Source: Kiritimatiellia bacterium
GTDB taxonomy: Bacteria > Verrucomicrobiota > Kiritimatiellia > RFP12 > UBA1067
Direction: 5' to 3'
Assembly: GCA_024405265.1 (NCBI GenBank)
Contig: JAKSOZ010000005.1
Span: 11,618-75,617 of the forward strand
DNA: 64,000 nucleotides
Made by a program: the position numbers and the translations under genes. The notes below the pieces were generated by a model that worked only from the letters and a program-made list of their open reading frames with translations, did no database searches and was not told where the DNA came from. Below are positions 13,101 to 20,560 of this stretch, one piece after another (position 1 is the stretch's first letter; the number at the start of each line of letters is the position of its first letter).

Positions 13101-15323
13101 CTCACCGAAATCAAGCGTCGCGCCGTTCTCGCTCGAGCTCTTAAGCGTCACGAGCCACGATTCTTTCTTAAGCGTCGCAATATCACCTGAGGGCATTTCA
13201 TACGCCGCCTTCGTCGTATCGATTGTCCAAGTATGCGCCGCATCGTCCTTTTCGACAACGACATCGGGATCGACTTTCACAACGACGCCTGTGGACGAAA
13301 CCTGAACACCGAGCGGAAGTGCTTCGCCGTTCACCGTCACCTTAATCGCCATATCGGCGAGATTGTTGTCGTCATCTACAACGAAGATCTGATCGCCGAT
13401 CTGCGGCTCGGAGGGAAGATCGATTGCCAATGTTCCCTTAATCGACTTCTTAAGGTAAAGTTTACCCTGCTCAAGGCGGATAACTCCACCTTCGATAATT
13501 GTCGTATTGCAGAGAAGGAAATAGGTATCGGCACTTTCCATCTTAACGATGAGATTACCCCCCGTCAAATCAAGCGTCGTCGCAGCCCAACCCGGCCCCA
13601 AGAGACCGAATTGGCGACCAGAAACAGTGGTCGTTTCCGCGACCGTCAATCGCGTCGTCTGACGACTTCCGTTGCTGATCGCATCACCCGTATTGGTTAT
13701 TTCGCCTTCGCTCGTAATAAAATAACAAGCATCTTTCGTCTTCGCAAGGTCAAGAATCGCCCCTTTCTCAACGAAGATCTCCGCAAGGCTCGAGACATCA
13801 GAAAGATTGTTCGGACCGAATCCGCGATTCGCATTGCTGTCGGTGATCGTCTGCCGAGCCGTACCCGAAAGAACGGTAAGCCCGCCCGTAAACGTGTTTC
13901 TCGCATCAAAAATCATCGAATGATTCACACCCGGATCGGCGGTCACGCGTCCCGCGCCGGAAATCACCTGCGAAATCGTATAATCATCATTGGGCTTCAG
14001 GACGAGATTCGCCTTCTCGCCCACCGTAACCGATTCCGTAATCGCAATATTCGGACAATAAACCTCGCCCTCGCACGAGGACAAATCGAGCGCTCCGACC
14101 GAAGTCACCGCCGGATACGCCGCCGAAAGCGACGCGATTTCCGTCGCCGAAAGCGCCTTACTGTAACCGACCATCTCTTTCACGACGAGCCCGTCGGCGC
14201 GCACGCGTCCATCCGGATTGCCTCCATAAGTCGAGCCGATCTGAATTTTGCCGGCGGCCATTAAGTTAAAATAAGGGTACCAACTACCTGTCGTCTGCGT
14301 GTAGAGCGTGCCGTCAACCGCAAGTGTGGCCGTCTGAGAAGCCATCGAAAGCGTCAACAAATGATAACCCTTCACCGTTGGGCCAACTATTGAATTATAC
14401 AGATATGTCCGATTCTGCTGAAGGACGACAATTCGTCTCTCGGAGTCGAGCGCGAGCGTCAAATGACAACCCGTATTCTCGCCGACACAGAAAAGTACGG
14501 CATGCTGTCCGGAATCAGGCGTCTCAATCATATCCGTCGAACCATACAACGAAATCGCGAAATCTCCCCATTGTCCAAGATTGTCGCGATACGGATGCCA
14601 CTTGTTGCTCGCATCAGTATTGTAAACGACATACGCCGATTCAGCACCCTTCGCGCCGATTACGGTGCGCGGCTTACCGGTCGTGTCTTCACCCTTCCAA
14701 CTCGTGAACCATCCGCTCGGATTCGTGCCGGGCGTCCAGGAGAAGTCAGGTGTCTGCGCGGAATGAGCCGCGTTATACGTAGCAACGAGCGCGGCGATAC
14801 CCTCTGTTGATGTCGCGCCGTTATAAATGGCTATATCGCTCACACAGGACGAGAAATCAAAGCGCGTACCCATCGTCGCACTGGTACCAGTCGCACGAAG
14901 GTCGTCCGCACGAAACGTTATTGTTCCGTTAGCATCATAAGCAGTCACGCCTTCATTGTTCGGTCCATAGACGCAAACAACCAATCCTTCGCTACCAAGC
15001 TCCGTCGTATTAATCGTGCCTCCAGTCCAATTCGCATCTTGCCACCAACCTTTTAAGACACCGCTATTTGAACACAATCCAACAATTCCCGTATAGCGCG
15101 TCTGATTCGACTGCGACCATGAAACGAGACGATCCGTACCCGACTGCGGCAAGTTCGCATACTTAAAGATAATCGTCGCACCGTCGGAGACAGACCACCC
15201 CTCGCTTCGCGTGTAGGTCGTACTGTCTTCGCTAATCGTATAGTCGTCGACCAAGTCCGCAGCGAAAGTGAACGAAGACACAAGCATTGCGACACACAAT
15301 GCAAAAACTGAACGGATCTTCAT
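7140..15323 (-). CDS. Giant secreted multidomain protein (LamG-like, autotransporter-passenger-like repeats, lamin-tail domains, CotH kinase, Cthe_2159-like carbohydrate-binding beta-helix)
   Basis: Start at ATG 15323 (SD aaggag, signal peptide MKIRSVFALCVAML). CotH-like motifs DLRGNTSAHFNKKSHGLRF, DPSYMRQ, MDDVWAN, WMPLGYDFNLSLG; LTD-like LRISEIMP...WVELEN and LVIKNTNAEAVDMSGWAL; Cthe_2159-like VTLTLKGENTL, GDAIDSNGDMTISGGYVFA. Confidence 0.85.
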   Translation of the reverse strand: MKIRSVFALCVAMLVSSFTFAADLVDDYTISEDSTTYTRSEGWSVSDGATIIFKYANLPQSGTDRLVSWSQSNQTRYTGIVGLCSNSGVLKGWWQDANWTGGTINTTELGSEGLVVCVYGPNNEGVTAYDANGTITFRADDLRATGTSATMGTRFDFSSCVSDIAIYNGATSTEGIAALVATYNAAHSAQTPDFSWTPGTNPSGWFTSWKGEDTTGKPRTVIGAKGAESAYVVYNTDASNKWHPYRDNLGQWGDFAISLYGSTDMIETPDSGQHAVLFCVGENTGCHLTLALDSERRIVVLQQNRTYLYNSIVGPTVKGYHLLTLSMASQTATLAVDGTLYTQTTGSWYPYFNLMAAGKIQIGSTYGGNPDGRVRADGLVVKEMVGYSKALSATEIASLSAAYPAVTSVGALDLSSCEGEVYCPNIAITESVTVGEKANLVLKPNDDYTISQVISGAGRVTADPGVNHSMIFDARNTFTGGLTVLSGTARQTITDSNANRGFGPNNLSDVSSLAEIFVEKGAILDLAKTKDACYFITSEGEITNTGDAISNGSRQTTRLTVAETTTVSGRQFGLLGPGWAATTLDLTGGNLIVKMESADTYFLLCNTTIIEGGVIRLEQGKLYLKKSIKGTLAIDLPSEPQIGDQIFVVDDDNNLADMAIKVTVNGEALPLGVQVSSTGVVVKVDPDVVVEKDDAAHTWTIDTTKAAYEMPSGDIATLKKESWLVTLKSSSENGATLDFGENKAAQASRYVIESGTHNLIWAGTVQTMNFDLSGTDTNPSILVKDGATLNFTARDVTGWNNNSTATKGNVIRVNAGGELKLLQYATNTFFYQGRFYLEPGATIETSYSANSVRFNGGTSEENPQIYVPSPTTSATTVTYTNDAGFRLASNATKGYAVCVEAGSTLEMIGAFSTEANDCKLAKYGKGTLVLDGSFASFGGSIIFKDGVLKVRENSGLDAAKVIPAEGETRQIGSVTADGWTVYSFGDPIATVGLIPYWDLREAFVVASNGGVVTILDETIIFEDGVFKREGETIFDPATVAIEVVKNEEDGTYTTRLSIADFAALRISEIMPKPVDKPASTLYPASLARYDKNGLESGWVELENMSDKWVDLADYAFTRVNRGKATKIDAGAFPSTLIAPHAKYVFYTSERYSNSISAKDSAWQHGTFDGKPKYFDEYDMMIWGDKVNPKKSPFVRLYYVKGGAETPIDTVVIPIDFPEGHSIIVEKAVEGETLKRYMTQYPTPGSANATGDLVTLGPTVGPLYEISSKKKHTSTNEFGPVAPAKIGEDYEIVFPLNPVMSPTAIAGFRDEDAITSITLLYRTDLDDKTLTRREVSLEKTTDNADQGDLYTAVIPHEAFDTIGAGHLIQWKFEVTDKSNVTFTSPSHLNKDDGYEWYGTIVEPGELNSESLATWHMFADSVSLQQMDVDAPKQDLSKVPYNARIAIYDSSTSNYYDYVRIDLRGNTSAHFNKKSHGLRFSKAHPLTMWDPVAGEMREEVRKSSLIGEPADPSYMRQMMSFWLWTKMGNKVPFDFPVRCNLNGKFFQMAFHSERFTDELIEDFHKLDKYGYGYKNVGTLKSGSGTTAGGIEKKTPDDGDESNVSVLQNQFRSKIVAAQQVKNDLNGVSTEGLDNPTLTKFVVEKFNLPAWLNYLASARITQEMDDVWANISIYYDNAEMKEGVRGTDTWMPLGYDFNLSLGQWYHNDVGSGYGLMANQDWFKSHPFYGGNRVRCYKSTAYSTTCNSGNDGMEAVWQNAKFRRLYLRRLRTLMDQELGAPDTTGEENETNSQISLMKKIREIAALMEKDAVLDRTRWPHDSSIGNIDVWGGDKPWPESMQAGIKEIWDDYIVPRRQHLYVTHSISNTEKGVGYGTNLAAGIPEAQSSIADLKSGFTAEYREDIAALVIKNTNAEAVDMSGWALSGPVSMTLPAGTVIDEGSEENPAEVYVSADRRATIAKMNELGLITNQIVVGNGEAVETEVITLKAGEETVIAPPEPSAQEKYLKLYGFCGAPLTDNDGIGEFIIFENIGTEALDVGGAAINICKTADADSASKCAITLAEGVSIAGGDYLRIAMADKEAKFGGTWSKITDGDLRITMTDSTGVQIYYREMLSQSAIGVKAVDKFAKHIYADDTWVAAELSEAPGYVAPEPPPVEPIDPPAEGDITGDFDDLQTFEAGVYTLNGANFNGGVKIDGDVTLTLKGENTLSTMTTTGTLTIEGDGTLTIDYANGEAGTAAVTLTKPYIQNGGNVVVNLSSENQVFGFYCNTATKDALGNGIYAVELNGGTFTTTIAGGESSAAFKLGKGTNDAKLGGTDVTVTLGGTAPRFMNTDGKIKLTKNCGKVTVTTATEGGTKANVFKSKKEIEINGGTVVATASGEGSEIFSSDDTILVKGGVLNLTAADDCFSAANHINISGGIVYAMSTAGDAIDSNGDMTISGGYVFAFTTSTEHEALDVDPSEDPTAVDNGIAHKLYINEGATVVAVGGLSTVHGPDDGSTAKCLVKTGLSSSSKYLVMTGIVDDENVRRTTTATVNLNKKHAKTFTLIATMPGFTGEITEGGDEVKPSTGKLADEISGMFVNTVESSIVTPSGATTWEEVVVTETTTVAELVGAEQGAMLVELKVEPKKIVEWAKTYSSSTKPGEAINLVAFALNCAPNEEAIEAAKKNFKVTITMTAEGPVAEIESGDYNITPVLKGKAELAEEGSWTEVTDDNKSGFKFFRAFIEIGE

Positions 15324-15370
15324 AGAAGATTCTCCTTCTTTTGTGGTATGTTGTTTTCTCAACAGCAACC

Positions 15371-15379
15371 ATTATACCA
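15371..15379 (-). promoter_or_regulatory. Extended -10 promoter (TGGTATAAT) for the giant CotH protein
   Basis: attatacca 47 nt upstream of the ATG. Confidence 0.6.
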
Positions 15380-15587
15380 AAATCCCCACCCTCTCGTCAT
15401 CATCCTTTTACGCAAGCAAAGAAACGAACTGATCGTTGAGCGCGTTTCTTCGAGCGTCATTTTTCCGCCTCTTAGAAAGAATCGGCGATTCCAGGCTAGA
15501 TCGGGCACAACTCTAGGGCGCTAATTTCCGGGGACTGTCCCCATTGCTCTAAACCGGGAACTGTCCCCGTTCCCTCACCTCCTCTTC

Positions 15588-16523
15588 TCATGCCGCTACC
15601 TCCGCGTGCCCATGCGACGAAAACGCCCAACCTCCGACTTGTTTCGGGCGGCATCTCCGTCCATAAAGCGCCGCGCTGAACTCAATCGCGCTCGCCCTCA
15701 CAAACTCCTTCCCGCCTAATATCTTACCTAAGCCTACCTGCGGCACTCTTTTCGTCACATCCACCCCCGATTCTTCCCCCTGTTTTCGGGGACTGTCCCC
15801 ATTTCCATCAGCGCTTCCGATTATCAAGCTTGACGTATAGTTTCTGCATTTAACGGCAAACGCTTCTCCTCTCGCAGCTCCGCCTGCCGAGCTCCAAGGA
15901 TATTCTTCCGGTGTTGCTACCATCTCGGCGCGAACCGGGTTATACTCGATATATTTGCGACAATTATTGAAATAATGCTCGTTTTCCACGATAGTAGACT
16001 TAAAACGCCCTCCCCAGATCGAACCTGAGTATTCTACGAGCTTCTTAAAGCGAATATTGAAAACTTCCTTAAAAGTTTTAACGAACTGACTTAAATCTTG
16101 CATTCTCACGCGATATCTGTCAATCTCCGCTTCAGCCTCGCGCTTCTGTTTGCTCTTACGAAGCATTTTGATGTAACCTGCTATTTCTTTAGCCCTCTTC
16201 TCTCCTTTAAGCACGCCTAGCCTTCGCATCACTTCTTCTTCCGCTATTTTCCACTTGAATTTCTCGGGGACTGTCCCCAAATTCTTTGCGATTTCCACAA
16301 GGGCGGTTTCGATGGTCGGGACCTCTACAGTCAAGTGAAAGTAATCGTCCATAATGACATACGAGCAGATCTTGACCCCGCTGAATTCGGCCGAGATGCG
16401 AAGCGAATCAACCATTATTCGCTTGATTCGCGGATCTTTCAATAGAAAGCGCTTCCCGGCGATACGAGACATAACATGATAGAACGCATCGTTTTCGCTC
16501 TTTACTCTTCTGGTTCTTGCCAT
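15588..16523 (-). mobile_element. Y1 HUH transposase, REP-associated tyrosine transposase (RAYT)-like
   Basis: FYHVMSR, YVIMDDYFHL (HUH position), IWGGRFKS, YIEYNPVRAEMV..PEEYPWSS; flanked by short palindromes. Confidence 0.85.
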
Positions 16524-16565
16524 AATATTTACCCTCCTTCATTGATAGTTATGCAAGGTATGTAA

Positions 16566-16752
16566 ATATTATCTCATATTCCGAAAAATCAAGTGTCACA
16601 TTTGCGTCACAAAATTGTGACGCAAAAATCCGCTACCTTTTGAGGACGATATGCCTTATACCCCGATAAGCATTGGCTGAAGTCGCGATTCGCGAGAGTT
16701 TACCGAATCTAATAATTCGTCTGAGTAAAATCTTTTTTTGTGACGATGAGGT
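16566..16752 (-). promoter_or_regulatory. 187-bp non-coding module, copy 1 (extended -10 TGAGATAAT plus GTCAC/GTGAC hairpin) upstream of the transposase
   Basis: Ungapped match to 61663-61849 (31 mismatches by hand count, ~83%); 12-bp inverted repeat TTTGCGTCACAA-AA-TTGTGACGCAAA. Confidence 0.85.
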
Positions 16753-16853
16753 TTTGACGGGAGTTTCTGCTTGAATCTCATGGGGACAGGCCCCGGAGAC
16801 TGACTGGGGACAGACCCCGAATATTTCTATATCTCTCCGAGAGTTAAATCAAA

Positions 16854-16887
16854 TCCTTACTAGCATTTAGAATATTACTAGTAAGGA
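16854..16887. terminator. 10-bp inverted repeat, possible bidirectional terminator or operator
   Basis: TCCTTACTAG-14 nt-CTAGTAAGGA with T-rich flanks on both strands; the stem is AT-rich, so weak. Confidence 0.3.
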
Positions 16888-17032
16888 ACTTTTCTTGGGG
16901 CAGGAGCTGATAAAATACTCAACCGAGAGGGCGAATATGCTCACCCACATGAAGTTCGGCGGTATTCCGCGTGTTCTACTCACATATTCTAACACTTGCG
17001 CAGGTTAAATCCGCATAGAATCAGTCCTTAAA

Positions 17033-17434
17033 TTATTTCAAATATCTTTCATCAAACTCATTCGCATTACTTATTCTATTCCCAAGCTTAACAACTTTTT
17101 CTCCTATGTCATGCAATTCTTTTAATCGGTTCCTAATTTTAGGCCAATCGATTTCTGCAAAAGCATGCCGTCTCTCCCCTCCACAATTGGTAACACCGAC
17201 ATATATGAGAAAGCACGGATCCAATCTATCACCAACTGCATAATTGTGCGCAGCCTCGATTGTCTTTATAATACCACCCGTCAATTTCCCAATCTTCCCA
17301 AAACACCTCAATAACAAAAGCGTCTTGTTTATCACTATATCTACTATCATTCGGGAAATCACGCACTTCCAAAGGCACATAACGCCCTCCCCAGTCATAC
17401 AAATGAGGGATATAATATCCCTTTTGGTACCCAT
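17033..17434 (-). CDS. AT-rich hypothetical protein or gene remnant
   Basis: Open frame from ATG 17434, lower GC than flanks, extended -10 (TGGTACAAT) at 17580-17588. No recognisable motif, and a competing frame also looks protein-like. Confidence 0.25.
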   Translation of the reverse strand: MGTKRDIISLICMTGEGVMCLWKCVISRMIVDIVINKTLLLLRCFGKIGKLTGGIIKTIEAAHNYAVGDRLDPCFLIYVGVTNCGGERRHAFAEIDWPKIRNRLKELHDIGEKVVKLGNRISNANEFDERYLK

Positions 17435-17649
17435 AGCCTTCCTGCCATGAGTTTCTAGTGAACTTATTATCTTAAGATTTCCTACGTTTCTCTCGACGAT
17501 CGCTCTGCAGCACTGCAAATTGTTTCCGCGGCATTTCACCGCGCATCCGGCAGAATGTCTCCCCCGCCGAACGTCTGGCATTGTACCATATTCCCGCTGG
17601 AGCTGGAAGCGGAAAGCTTAAAAATCTGCCGCGTTTGACCAACTTGTTT

Positions 17650-17800
17650 AGGGGTATACCCCTCTCTTGTCTAAGGGTATAACCCCCTCGCTTGAGAGGG
17701 TTATACCCCAAGAGCCTTTAGGGTTATACCCTCTAACTCGAGAGGGGTATACCCTCTAACGAGTATCTCTCGCTCTTCCCGTGAATTAAGGGTTATACTC
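17650..17800. repeat. 23-bp-period array of palindromic AGGG(G/T)TATACCC motifs
   Basis: Units start at 17650, 17673, 17697, 17720, 17743 and 17789 (spacings 23, 24, 23, 23, 46). Confidence 0.85.
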
Positions 17801-18225
17801 GAATAGAGGGAGTTGTAACGGATAGGCGTAGGAAGAACCTATGATTCTCCATTCAGGAGAAGCGCTAAAGGAGCGAGCAATAGACGCACCGAAGAAGTAG
17901 GTGAGGCTAGTGACGCAAGATTGAGTGTTGAGCTGAGCTTTTAGCGAGGATTTCGGTTCGGGGATTTCGCGTTCGAGAACAAGTAGGCCGAGGAGGAGTA
18001 TCCGCCGACGACGGCATACGAAGTTATCGGGCGCGAAAGCAACGAGAGAAAGACTCGGGAAAAGCGGGAGCGAGACCGAAAGCGAAGCGGCAGCTCGCCG
18101 AATTCGACCAGGGTGCCATGCGCGGCCAAATTCGCCGACACAAGGTAAAGGCAAAAGTAGGTATAATCGCACGGGAATCGTGAAACGATTTACTTTGGTG
18201 CGAGTTGCCGCGTTCGGCAAGAATA

Positions 18226-18234
18226 TGATACAAT
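18226..18234 (+). promoter_or_regulatory. Extended -10 promoter (TGATACAAT), leaderless configuration
   Basis: -10 ends 7 nt before ATG 18242; no SD sequence. Confidence 0.65.
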
Positions 18235-18241
18235 ACTCGCC

Positions 18242-19660
18242 ATGTCGGTAATTTTAGCTTCTGAACGTAAATCTTTCAAAGCGCGAGTCATGCTCGCGAT
18301 CATCTATTCGGCGCTCACGCTCGGCGCGGTGACGATGATCTATCCTTTCGCGGTAATGCTCGCCGCCTCCGGCTCCAGCGGCTACGATTATCAGCGCCAC
18401 TCCCCTTTCATAACCGGTCTTACCGACCGTTCCGACCGTTTCATGCGCTCAATCAGCTCATACTTCCGCGCGTTCCCACGCGCGCTTTATCCTGACGCGC
18501 CGGAATCTTGGACGACTTGGGTGAATGTCGCGAAGGATCGAGAAGGAATAACGACTTTCGCCGCTAGAGAACTCGCCGCGTTCGATAATTCCGAGTCGAG
18601 AACCGCCGCGCGAGAATACTTGAAGAGCCTTTCGAATCGCGACATAAATGAACTCGGTTGCAATTACGATGCGAGAGACGTAGCCAGATTCTTGAAGGCG
18701 AAATATTCATCGATCGATAAGCTCAATCAAACCTGGCCGGTACCATATCGTTCGTTCTTCGATGTTTCCTTCTCAGCGGAACTTAAAGCGAATCAGCGGC
18801 GTCTACCCTCAAACGGAGACAAGGCCGAATCTTGGAGAGAATTCAAAGCGTGGTATTTAAAGCGAGCGATCGCGAGCGATGATTTCGTATCGCGTACGCT
18901 TCCTGTCGAGCTCGAAAAAGAGCGTGAGGAGATTCGCCGCGCTTTGGCAGTGCAATTTCTAGAGCATGGATGGCGCGATTTCGTACACAGTCTCTTCGCA
19001 AATTATCGTATGGTCTTCGATTTTCTCTTCTTTCGAGGACGCGCTTTCGTCAATACGATCATTCTCGTAGTCCTCTCGGTTCTTTCTTCGCTTACCGTGA
19101 ACCCGCTCGCCGCCTATGCTTTAAGTCGCTTCAATCTAAAGGCGACGGAAAGCATCATTCTATTTCTTTTGGCGACGATGGCGTTCCCCGCGGCAGTTAC
19201 GGCGATTCCGGGATTCTTGCTGATTCGTGATCTCGGAATGCTCAATACTTTCGCCGCGCTTATCCTCCCCACAATCGCGAGCGGTATGTCGATTTTCATC
19301 TTGAAGGGATTCTTCGACGCCTTGCCGCGTGAGCTTTACGAAGCCGCCTCCATCGACGGTGCAAGCGAATGGACGGTATTCACGCGAATCACGCTGCCGA
19401 TGACGACGCCGATTTTAGCGGTAAATGCCTTGAATTCGTTCATTCACGCATATTCGTCGTGGGAGTGGGCGTTTCTCGTTTGCCAAAAGGAATCTCACTG
19501 GACGCTGGCGGTTTGGATGTACCAAATGTCGCAAACCTTCGCGCATCAGCCGTGGTGCGTGATGGCAGGATTCGTAGTCGTTTCGATTCCTACCGCTGTC
19601 GTCTTTCTGGTTTGTCAGAAAGTGATTCTAAAGGGAATCGTACTTCCCTCAATGAAGTGA
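18242..19660 (+). CDS. Carbohydrate ABC transporter permease (MalG-like) with large periplasmic insertion
   Basis: EAA motif ELYEAASIDGASEWTVFTRITLPMTTP; AAYALSRF; N-terminal TM helix followed by a ~200-aa soluble insertion. Confidence 0.9.
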   Translation: MSVILASERKSFKARVMLAIIYSALTLGAVTMIYPFAVMLAASGSSGYDYQRHSPFITGLTDRSDRFMRSISSYFRAFPRALYPDAPESWTTWVNVAKDREGITTFAARELAAFDNSESRTAAREYLKSLSNRDINELGCNYDARDVARFLKAKYSSIDKLNQTWPVPYRSFFDVSFSAELKANQRRLPSNGDKAESWREFKAWYLKRAIASDDFVSRTLPVELEKEREEIRRALAVQFLEHGWRDFVHSLFANYRMVFDFLFFRGRAFVNTIILVVLSVLSSLTVNPLAAYALSRFNLKATESIILFLLATMAFPAAVTAIPGFLLIRDLGMLNTFAALILPTIASGMSIFILKGFFDALPRELYEAASIDGASEWTVFTRITLPMTTPILAVNALNSFIHAYSSWEWAFLVCQKESHWTLAVWMYQMSQTFAHQPWCVMAGFVVVSIPTAVVFLVCQKVILKGIVLPSMK

Positions 19661-20560
19661 TTCGGCGTTCGACTGAATCGCAGCGGTAAGAACGTACTTT
19701 TCGCCCGGCTGAAGCGACTGACCTTCAGGCCAGTTGGAGACGGGTTCGACGCAGACGAACTTCGACCAGTCATCACTTTCAAAGTCCTTCATCGTCGCAC
19801 CCTCTCCGGGATTCCAAATAACGAGCTTCGTATTGCCGCTCGAAACGAGCGCGATACCCCTTTTGAGCTTGTTATCGAGGATGGCGAATTCATGCTTAAG
19901 ATCGGCCAAAGGGAGACGGAAGATATGGTCGGTCGCATGATCCATAACGAGATCGTGAGTCTGGTGGTCATTAGGATTTCCGTCGACACCATTGAAGAAA
20001 TCGAGCCCGCTAGTACCCGCTATCGTCGCATTATCACGATGAGAAACGCGGAAGTAAGGATGGAAACCGCAGGAGAAATCGAAGGGAGTTTCGTCCTTAT
20101 TGGTCGTCGTGAGCTTAAGATTTAGCTTCATCGAGACGGAAACCTTGAACTCGAGATCGAACTTGTGAGGCCACATCTTCATCGTCTCTTCATTCGACTT
20201 AAGCCCCAAGGTGATTTCGGTCATATCTTCCGAGTATTCCGTTCCCCGCACATCGAAGACGAGAAGCTTCGCGAAACCATGCTGAGGAAGATCCTTCGAG
20301 AACTTGTTGCCGAACTGAGGCCAGCAAACGGGAATGCCGCCATGAAAGCTTTCGCCGCGATTATAGTCACGCTTCGCAGGGCGGAAGATTACGGGGAAGT
20401 GTCCGGTCGGGCGATAAGAAAGCACATTGCCACCGAGAAGCGCGATTTCCGCCGCGCCATACTTGTTGGCAATCACGACTTCGGGATAACCCGCGAAACC
20501 TTCGTGGAAAACGATGCGACCGGGAGCGCCGAAGCGCGCGTTGAGCTGATCGATAGTCAT
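19649..20560 (-). CDS. D-hexose-6-phosphate mutarotase (aldose 1-epimerase family, YeaD-like)
   Basis: GGIPVCWPQFG, QHGFA, FHPYF, FVCVEP. Confidence 0.88.
   Translation of the reverse strand: MTIDQLNARFGAPGRIVFHEGFAGYPEVVIANKYGAAEIALLGGNVLSYRPTGHFPVIFRPAKRDYNRGESFHGGIPVCWPQFGNKFSKDLPQHGFAKLLVFDVRGTEYSEDMTEITLGLKSNEETMKMWPHKFDLEFKVSVSMKLNLKLTTTNKDETPFDFSCGFHPYFRVSHRDNATIAGTSGLDFFNGVDGNPNDHQTHDLVMDHATDHIFRLPLADLKHEFAILDNKLKRGIALVSSGNTKLVIWNPGEGATMKDFESDDWSKFVCVEPVSNWPEGQSLQPGEKYVLTAAIQSNAESLH

Follow-up and report, generated by a model that had tools for sequence, protein, structure and literature searches.

A phased array of short palindromes in a Kiritimatiellia genome is the core of a dispersed intergenic repeat and may provide docking sites for a dimeric DNA-binding protein

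The DNA considered here, in the following called the window, is a stretch of 64,000 nucleotides from contig JAKSOZ010000005.1 of the Kiritimatiellia bacterium assembly GCA_024405265.1. Between positions 17652 and 17800 it carries an array of six short GGG-N5-CCC palindromes in a 23-bp phase. It forms the core module of an intergenic repeat that is modular, dispersed and specific to this species. Comparison of its copies suggests that both the palindromic boxes and their phase are under selection, and a neutral minisatellite appears unlikely. We tentatively propose, with somewhat less than even confidence, that the array provides docking sites for a dimeric DNA-binding protein in front of a portable defence-gene promoter, the binder possibly being a HU-DNA_bdg/DUF4469 (HU-HIG-like) protein.

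Repeats dispersed between genes are commonly classed as selfish DNA; in this case the sequence evidence points to an array that functions at the level of the DNA. The module belongs with the dispersed modular intergenic repeats and adds a testable link to an orphan protein family. Many box families, spread over an order of uncultured gut bacteria, share its 22-23-bp geometry.

Results

Architecture of the array

The window is part of a contig (C45) of a metagenome-assembled genome (MAG, label G000) of 1.7 Mb, which consists of 56 contigs and is 77% complete. An earlier note on this DNA, made from the letters alone, had reported six palindromic boxes with a 23-bp period, one empty slot and variable linkers of about 10 nt. 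The sequence at 17640-17810 confirmed the palindrome array with its six boxes, Tandem Repeats Finder (TRF) and a repeat search confirmed its period, and the coordinates could be sharpened. The 11-mers of the form GGG-N5-CCC start at 17652, 17675, 17698, 17721, 17744 and 17790, with a spacing of exactly 23-23-23-23-46 bp. The module thus defined has 149 bp and seven slots, of which slots 1-5 and 7 hold a box, and slot 6 is without a box yet in phase. The linkers are variable as described, but with the 11-mer definition of the box their length is 12 nt.

In detail, box 1 (GGGTATACCCC, 17652-17662) lies inside a perfect 12-bp palindrome (GGGGTATACCCC, 17651-17662) and is followed by box 2 (GGGTATAACCC, 17675-17685). 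Boxes 3 and 4 share the sequence GGGTTATACCC (17698-17708 and 17721-17731), box 3 being the centre of the overall dyad, and box 5 reads GGGGTATACCC (17744-17754). Across the empty slot and its linkers (TCTAACGAGTATCTCTCGCTCTTCCCGTGAATTAA, 17755-17789) the 46-bp phase is maintained, and conservation of this segment is about 85% in the four closest copies. The terminal box in slot 7 (GGGTTATACTC, 17790-17800) is degenerate, and its ...TATACTC form is kept in the other copies. The pattern GGGKWATAMCCC, with at most one mismatch allowed, gave 10 strand-hits, all within 17651-17755; shuffled sequences lead to an expectation of 0.57, and none of them reached 10. The five central bases are always TATA plus one base (GTATA, TATAC, TATAA, TTATA) or TA-N-TA, so that the constant feature consists of two G/C triplets 8 bp apart with a TA-rich centre. 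Extensions of the boxes follow the scheme (G)AGA/TCT(C), and the core stem comprises 3-4 bp.

The whole array folds as one long hairpin, both as RNA (-79 kcal/mol, z -6.7) and as DNA (z -6.3). Pairing between different boxes, which had been pointed out before for neighbouring units, is real, but it is automatic for palindromic units; the minimum-energy fold pairs boxes 1 with 5 and 2 with 4 and has box 3 at its tip. An Rfam scan of 15000-20000 (E <= 1) returned only a sub-threshold match to a miRNA precursor (27 bits, with the gathering score at 100), which is due to the long hairpin.

Copies in the genome and their constraint

A genome-wide search for the motif, as suggested in the earlier note, was carried out on the whole MAG with blastn, regular expressions and alignments, and revealed nine loci with about 35 boxes. 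Full copies with 5+1 boxes are present in the window and on contigs C53, C16, C38 and C2. The remaining four loci are deletion derivatives: the second copy on C45 (C45b, at C45:77822) retains 1+1 boxes, those on C3 and C7 only the terminal box (0+1), and the copy on C10 is truncated. Two of the nine loci share one 78-kb chromosomal contig, where they are 48 kb apart. Lone GGG-N5-CCC boxes are no commoner in the MAG than expected by chance. A unique and invariant array would have spoken for a neutral minisatellite; the array is instead present in multiple copies, some of which have lost units.

At the nine loci, which are intergenic, a conserved left flank (...AAAAATCTGCCGCGTTTGACCAACTTGTTT) and a conserved right flank (CGAATAGCGGTCATTCACAAGGCAAAGCAAAAGGAAA) bracket 5, 1 or 0 internal boxes, as in BOX-type composite elements. 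Neither terminal inverted repeats nor target-site duplications were visible among the copies, and the module boundaries vary between them. All deletions run exactly from box to box, and the surviving box on C7 (GGGGTATACTC) is chimeric between box 1 and the terminal box, which points to recombination or slippage between boxes.

None of the five full copies departs from the spacing of 23-23-23-23-46 bp, and the alignment of their 149-nt cores is free of gaps. In the three deeply diverged pairs of copies the boxes are 92-95% identical, as against 48-69% for the 12-nt linkers (Fisher p = 1.5e-4, 1.8e-7 and 2.6e-5), or roughly 93% as against 60%. Selection on boxes and spacing is the simpler explanation for this difference, because gene conversion would homogenise the linkers as well.

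The continuation of the right flank has its own 22-23-bp repeats (AGCCCGCTCACTCGCGCGAGTG, AGCCCGCCCATCGCCTACCAATC), found at C3:9822-9949, C7:234-312, C45:77969-78061, C54:59061-59183 and C33:351-443, and several contigs break inside them.

Outside this species, a strict three-box IUPAC pattern had no match among 185,579 species genomes. The search in relatives that had been recommended, a blast of 40 genomes, matched the promoter part alone, and this in one species. On these searches the GGG-N5-CCC array family is restricted to the present species. Five metagenome matches and two viral matches to the three-box pattern were rejected as unrelated perfect tandem repeats. The 43.8-kb viral contig IMGVR_UViG_3300021961_000184 contains, at about 21.0 kb, three 25-bp tandem units, each with a perfect GGGGTATACCCC and with unrelated flanks; these units may be a phage iteron-like site.

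A promoter-leader cassette next to the array

In the window and in most other copies the array is fused, in inverted orientation, to a promoter-leader cassette. The junction lies in the left flank at 17620-17651 (minus strand), where the cassette end CGCGGCAGATTTTT (17633-17620) is joined to GCGTTTGACCAACTTGTTTA. In the C38 copy, the joined left-flank sequence is the 3' end, including the stop codon, of an open reading frame (ORF) for a hydrophobic peptide of 38 aa. The putative portable promoter (17580-17616, minus strand) reads away from the array and comprises CTTTCCGCTTCC (17616-17605) and the extended -10 element TGGTACAAT (17588-17580), 64 bp from box 1. The minus-strand promoter assumed in the earlier note is thereby confirmed as a motif, and its activity is inferred from the motif and from its recurrence before genes. 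The leader part (17472-17565, minus strand) contains a Shine-Dalgarno-like sequence (GGGGGAGA, 17565-17558) and a leader ORF of 24 codons (MRGEMPRKQFAVLQSDRREKRRKS, 17546-17472). The first gene served by the cassette is probably an ORF of about 121 aa without a Pfam match (17033-17398, minus strand). The array is located between divergent transcription units, at roughly -80 to -225 from the inferred transcription start of the cassette promoter.

The palindrome AGGGATATTATATCCCT (17422-17406), between the leader ORF and the ORF of about 121 aa, is absent from the other array copies; in style, with GGG, an AT-rich centre and CCC, it recalls the boxes. A candidate sigma-70 promoter reading from the left flank into the array was rejected on inspection because its elements, TTGACC and TATAC, are separated by only 14 nt, and the right flank, inspected as an intrinsic terminator, was not convincing.

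The cassette precedes unrelated genes of defence and the mobilome, those for restriction-modification and GmrSD among them, at no fewer than six loci of this genome, as would be expected of a mobile promoter. Beside the ORF of about 121 aa in the window, the genes behind array-bearing cassettes encode a C5 DNA methylase and an AAA_5 protein (C16), an EcoRI-type methylase and a GmrSD/HNH protein (C45b), an unknown protein followed by a PLD-ResIII protein (C53), an ORF6N-PLD protein (C10), and DUF6922 and Bro-N proteins (C3). A sister species (G009) has about 25 copies of the cassette (including those in records L005, L007 and L009), with about 85% nucleotide identity to the cassette in the window (17472-17633, minus strand). 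Among 60 genomes of the genus, the cassette pattern matched only in these two species. The orthologous permease genes of the two have a protein identity of 73%, and the higher nucleotide identity of the cassette, together with its absence elsewhere in the genus, suggests horizontal spread or strong constraint.

In three places of the sister genome (C74, L005 1560-1680; C27; C34) the same promoter cassette stands beside a different array, which has a 22-bp phase and four non-palindromic G(T/C)CGCCGCTA boxes. Across these three copies the boxes are invariant and the linkers variable.

A wider class of phased arrays

A TRF scan of the whole MAG yielded 43 merged arrays with a period of 22-23 bp, which belong to at least 10 box families, and 22 is the commonest value in the period histogram. 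Most of these arrays have a conserved box of 12-15 bp, often palindromic, and a variable, strand-biased linker of about 10 nt, and about half of them lie at contig ends. Examples are found at C3:7938-8038, C4:41594-41716, C31:16701-16824, C48:19-121 and 548-692, C55:2785-2958, C23:76157-76285 and C45:276-338. A second 23-bp family with the box TCGCC-TWA-GGCGA has eight units on C55 and six on C23, separated by variable 10-nt linkers without G. Other families in the MAG are TCAGCRYGCTGA, whose palindrome is too short for stable hairpins, GGGGAC-W-GWCCCC, AAGTAGCCGCTTACTT, GGCAACC-N-GGTTGCC and the non-palindromic GGGGGACGGTAATGA. The sister species has families of its own, namely GYCGCCGCTA (non-palindromic, 22 bp), TTCAATATTGAA and AAGTGCTAGCACTT. 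A reader of double-stranded DNA explains this class better than hairpins do, since several families are non-palindromic or too short and all have a period of about two helical turns.

The 13-bp palindrome GGGGAC-W-GWCCCC also occurs as a single copy near the RAYT-like gene (a relative of the REP-associated tyrosine transposases) in the window (16805-16819), and in 23-24-bp arrays at C38:2281-2336, at C3:8339-8385 and on C55 at about 56950.

Phased arrays upstream of HU-like genes

The gene directly behind the C55 array has a match to HU-DNA_bdg (PF14848) of 37 bits and a match to DUF4469 below the curated cut-off. Altogether, seven PF14848-like ORFs are found in the MAG, in pairs at four loci, and three in the sister species; none was detected in the four other genomes of the genus that were examined. 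At five of the seven loci in the two species, phased arrays of differing palindromes, with periods of 22-24 bp, lie upstream of the first HU-like gene. On C55, eight units of TCGCC-TWA-GGCGA end 34 bp before the ATG. On C38, 2.4 units of GGGGAC-W-GWCCCC extend from -73 to -18 relative to the start codon, and the GGG-N5-CCC array with its 5+1 boxes from about -282 to -130. On C23, four units of CTAGCTAG cover about -180 to -90. In the sister species, seven units of TTCAATATTGAA on C9 reach from -158 to 0, with an extended -10 element embedded in the array, and three units of AAGTGCTAGCACTT on C66 from -107 to -50.

The association extends to other genera of the order. Around 27 PF14848 loci, 14 arrays with a period of 22-23 bp were counted in 83.8 kb; 400 kb of control DNA from these genomes yielded 9, which corresponds to a 7.4-fold enrichment (Poisson P = 1.4e-8). 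In six of these 27 loci the array is found at a consistent distance of -538 to -646.

The order on C38 is co-directional throughout and comprises the ORF for the 38-aa hydrophobic peptide, whose stop codon lies within the left flank (GCGTTTGACC), the GGG-N5-CCC array, the GGGGAC array, a gene for a HU-like protein of 233 aa and then one of 419 aa. A cassette of peptide ORF (38-44 aa), array and HU-DNA_bdg/DUF4469 gene is present at C38:1566-2675, C23:100-1166 and C55:2054-3100; a second, longer HU-like gene usually follows, and the box sequence differs from cassette to cassette. Because the order of peptide, array and HU-like gene is also found on C23 and C55, we regard C38 as the home context of the GGG-N5-CCC array. 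No HU-like gene is present near the window copy. A sequence search of the PDB with the 233-aa protein gave no match.

Discussion

Proposed function and rival explanations

We suggest that a symmetric, that is dimeric, protein docks on the row of boxes in double-stranded DNA and takes up about two helical turns per unit. It would bind each box, and cooperative binding would form a nucleoprotein stretch before the cassette promoter, at roughly -80 to -225, and might repress, activate or insulate this promoter. More tentatively, the binder could be a HU-DNA_bdg/DUF4469 protein, with the 233-aa and 419-aa pair on C38 as the best candidate; in that case the copy in the window would be an orphan target of this pair and would place a defence-gene promoter under its control. 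A dimeric protein as binder is favoured indirectly by the selection on boxes and phase, by the non-palindromic sister arrays and by the recurrent position before genes of the HU fold. From the earlier note, cooperative binding of a dimeric protein is therefore retained as the best reading, whereas its iteron and centromere labels are not.

A broader form of this idea, which we regard as rather doubtful at present, is that the 22-23-bp phased arrays of the Kiritimatiellales are the cognate targets of HU-HIG-like proteins. Each paralogue would recognise its own palindrome and polymerise along its own array, and orphan arrays on portable promoter-leader cassettes would wire in newly acquired defence genes. 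If true, these would be the first DNA targets for the HU-HIG expansion and part of a modular plug-in regulatory system. Should the link hold, it would offer a directly testable protein-DNA recognition code and a mechanism which brings newly acquired defence genes under control.

Several observations weigh against the proposal. Only one of the nine GGG-N5-CCC loci lies near a HU-like gene, and there the GGGGAC-W-GWCCCC array is closer to the gene. The enrichment of arrays could merely reflect the presence of both arrays and HU-like genes in accessory or mobile regions. The array families (at least 10) outnumber the HU-like genes (seven, in a MAG of the stated completeness). Since cassettes occur without an array on C3, C7 and C55, the array can be regarded as an upstream module that is optional and dispensable for promoter function. 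Outward promoters stand beside 7 of the 43 arrays, against one expected under random placement, a number not clearly above the effect of intergenic location; for this reason the link to a promoter is claimed for the GGG-N5-CCC family only. Finally, the array could be transcribed at C38, at C23 and on C9 of the sister species, where it is flanked by co-directional genes.

If the array docks a protein, this need not be HU-like. Selection on boxes and phase demands a reader of double-stranded DNA but leaves its identity free. A ribbon-helix-helix protein, an Xre-type or other helix-turn-helix protein, or the Bro-N or ORF6N/KilA-N proteins behind the cassettes are examples. Short-palindrome arrays are bound cooperatively by ribbon-helix-helix dimers such as MetJ, omega and ParR; eight of the nine loci have no HU-like gene nearby, and two copies have genes for Bro-N and ORF6N proteins downstream. 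We nevertheless hold such a binder to be unlikely, as no gene of this kind recurs beside the arrays, whereas HU-like genes do, and a candidate with a matching expansion of paralogues was not found. A selfish or neutral hairpin repeat would have no sequence-specific host function and would have spread by transposition, through a RAYT-like nuclease or another transposase, or by recombination, in the manner of miniature inverted-repeat transposable elements (MITE), bacterial interspersed mosaic elements (BIME) or BOX elements. It would account for a multi-copy, species-specific, intergenic and mosaic element with frequent assembly breaks, for the single long hairpin and for the RAYT-like gene 1.1 kb off, and an architecture of flank, n units and flank matches that of pneumococcal BOX (PMC3049150). 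Neutral decay, however, predicts neither boxes far more conserved than linkers nor the lack of any indel in five diverged copies, and non-palindromic sister families cannot form hairpins. The copies also lack a GTAG motif, besides the terminal repeats and duplications already mentioned, and tblastn found just two RAYT-like genes, whose nearest arrays are 1.13 kb and 10.5 kb away, which leaves seven loci without one. This origin thus seems distinctly unlikely.

A role at the RNA level, in which the transcribed array would act through five hairpins or one as terminator, insulator, processing site, mRNA stabiliser or protein sponge, we consider improbable. The strong predicted structure and the three co-directional settings named above speak for it, as do two box variants (CTC, CCT) that correspond to G-U wobbles on the plus strand. 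In the window, however, the array lies between divergent units and upstream of the only credible promoters; a U-tract and an Rfam family are both missing, core stems are 3-4 bp, and the strict 23-bp phasing with an empty slot that keeps the phase has no obvious meaning for RNA hairpins. The exact box-to-box deletions, the chimeric box and the various combinations of modules at recurrent junctions such as CTGCCGCG, with accessory genes as cargo, would also suit sites at which a site-specific recombinase makes crossovers, or hotspots for an integron-like shuffling of promoter and gene cassettes. Slippage between direct repeats predicts such deletions equally well, no recombinase gene recurs nearby, and arms of 3-8 bp are below the known core sites of recombinases, which makes this explanation very improbable. 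Lastly, five sites at a phase of 22-23 bp represent the classic iteron geometry, known for instance from RK2 oriV, and are compatible with a replication origin or a partition centromere of a plasmid or integrated element. This reading is effectively refuted by copy number and context. The nine loci are chromosomal, and one contig bears two of them; none of the neighbouring genes is a rep, parA or parB gene; the boxes are palindromic and not direct repeats; and viral contigs contained no matching array, plasmid collections not having been searched.

Comparison with known repeat and operator systems

Repetitive extragenic palindromic (REP) sequences and BIMEs are characterised by a RAYT gene flanked by the repeat, by GT[AG]G at the 5' end of an imperfect palindrome of 20-40 nt, and by tens to hundreds of extragenic copies. 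Like them, the array is composed of short, regularly spaced palindromic units outside genes, in a genome that encodes RAYT-like genes. It differs in the missing GTAG-type motif, the core stem of 3-4 bp, the low copy number and the non-palindromic sister families. Of the previous proposal of a BIME-like second REP family, the dispersed modular intergenic repeat holds true; the assignment to REP does not, as a GTAG motif is missing, the RAYT-like genes are not flanked by the repeat and there are only nine loci.

A CRISPR locus has a leader, repeats of some 23-55 bp and acquired spacers that are unique and no shorter than 21 bp, and cas genes usually accompany it. With a box of 11 bp and linkers of 12 nt the array is not a CRISPR, as had been stated before. 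A tiny repeat-spacer RNA array, also considered at that time, finds no support, given linkers that are homologous between copies and hence inherited, not acquired. Plasmid iterons in oriV form one array of direct repeats per replicon beside rep and an AT-rich unwinding region, and a partition centromere (parC/sopC/parS) adjoins a parA/parB(R) operon, with one site or a small number of sites in each replicon.

By analogy, the array comes closest in its architecture to the pneumococcal BOX elements (boxA-boxB(n)-boxC; PMC3049150). Both are dispersed, species-restricted intergenic composites with conserved ends and predicted folds beside promoters; an influence on neighbouring genes is known or suspected, and recombination or slippage alters the unit count. 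Sequence composition and unit size differ, and the BOX units of 45 bp at more than 100 loci contrast with 23-bp units, each with an 11-bp palindrome, at nine loci. The full form of the array is fixed at 5+1 boxes in exact phase, with only deletion derivatives beside it, whereas the BOX count varies freely.

Its geometry, again by analogy, is most like that of operator and iteron arrays. The met-boxes of MetJ, the omega heptads of pSM19035, the parC sites of ParR and the RK2 iterons all comprise 3-10 short phased sites by a promoter, and in these arrays, too, sites are conserved and linkers free. They differ in being confined to one locus per replicon or regulon promoter and in having a known binder, while the GGG-N5-CCC array is a dispersed mobile module with an inferred one. 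In its mode of spread, the array may be likened to the putative mobile promoters (PMC3575422), which are copied before non-homologous genes within and between species just as the cassette is; the cassette bears in addition an exchangeable upstream array module.

The HU-HIG clade of the HU/IHF superfamily comprises rapidly diversifying expansions in Bacteroidota, for which a part in biological conflict has been proposed (PMC5499826; PDB 4FMR). No DNA target has been described for it, and its describers doubted sequence specificity (PMC5499826). The candidate binders resemble this clade in combining PF14848 with the Ig-like DUF4469 and in forming rapidly diverging paralogues in accessory regions, but they stem from Kiritimatiellae rather than Bacteroidota. 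We propose the arrays as the first candidate targets of the HU-HIG clade, a new assignment which could be wrong. A loose precedent comes from Geobacter metallireducens, where multicopy intergenic sequences with short tandem repeats were proposed as IHF/HU sites (PMC2700814). As here, there are many species-specific families with tandem short boxes, taken to be sites of global regulators. The Geobacter repeats of 7-9 nt differ from the arrays in sequence and are without a phased 22-23-bp architecture, and adjacency to HU-like genes was not reported for them (PMC2700814).

Other features of the intergenic region and of the genome

The array is situated in a 1.7-kb stretch without convincing genes, between the RAYT-like gene and the start of an ABC-permease gene (18242). 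The RAYT-like gene (15588-16523) has a weak match to Y1_Tnp and starts 1.13 kb from the array, in agreement with the distance of about 1.1 kb given earlier. The entire segment 16558-18170 is a mosaic of dispersed repeat modules, many of which lie at contig ends elsewhere in the MAG. Between 17839 and 18168, such modules fill the remaining intergenic DNA: the one at 17839-18137 recurs on at least five contigs, and that at 18122-18168, mostly found at contig ends, on about 25. In the sister species, a different gene lies 38 nt upstream of the permease orthologue with no mosaic region between them, so the 1.7-kb repeat patch of the window is a lineage-specific insertion or rearrangement.

The ATG of the ABC-permease gene (18242) follows 7 nt after an extended -10 element (TGATACAAT, window 18221-18244), and the gene is therefore probably leaderless. 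Like arrangements are found at C3:9671, C55:2746 and C2:24948.

The closest relatives of the IorA protein of the MAG, with 79-85% identity, come from gut and rumen Kiritimatiellae MAGs. Proteins with 74-84% identity to it are also present in records labelled Gemmiger sp., Clostridiales bacterium, Faecalibacterium prausnitzii and Clostridium sp. CAG:138 (L120, L125, L138, L146), and these four records are probably mis-binned or mislabelled assemblies.

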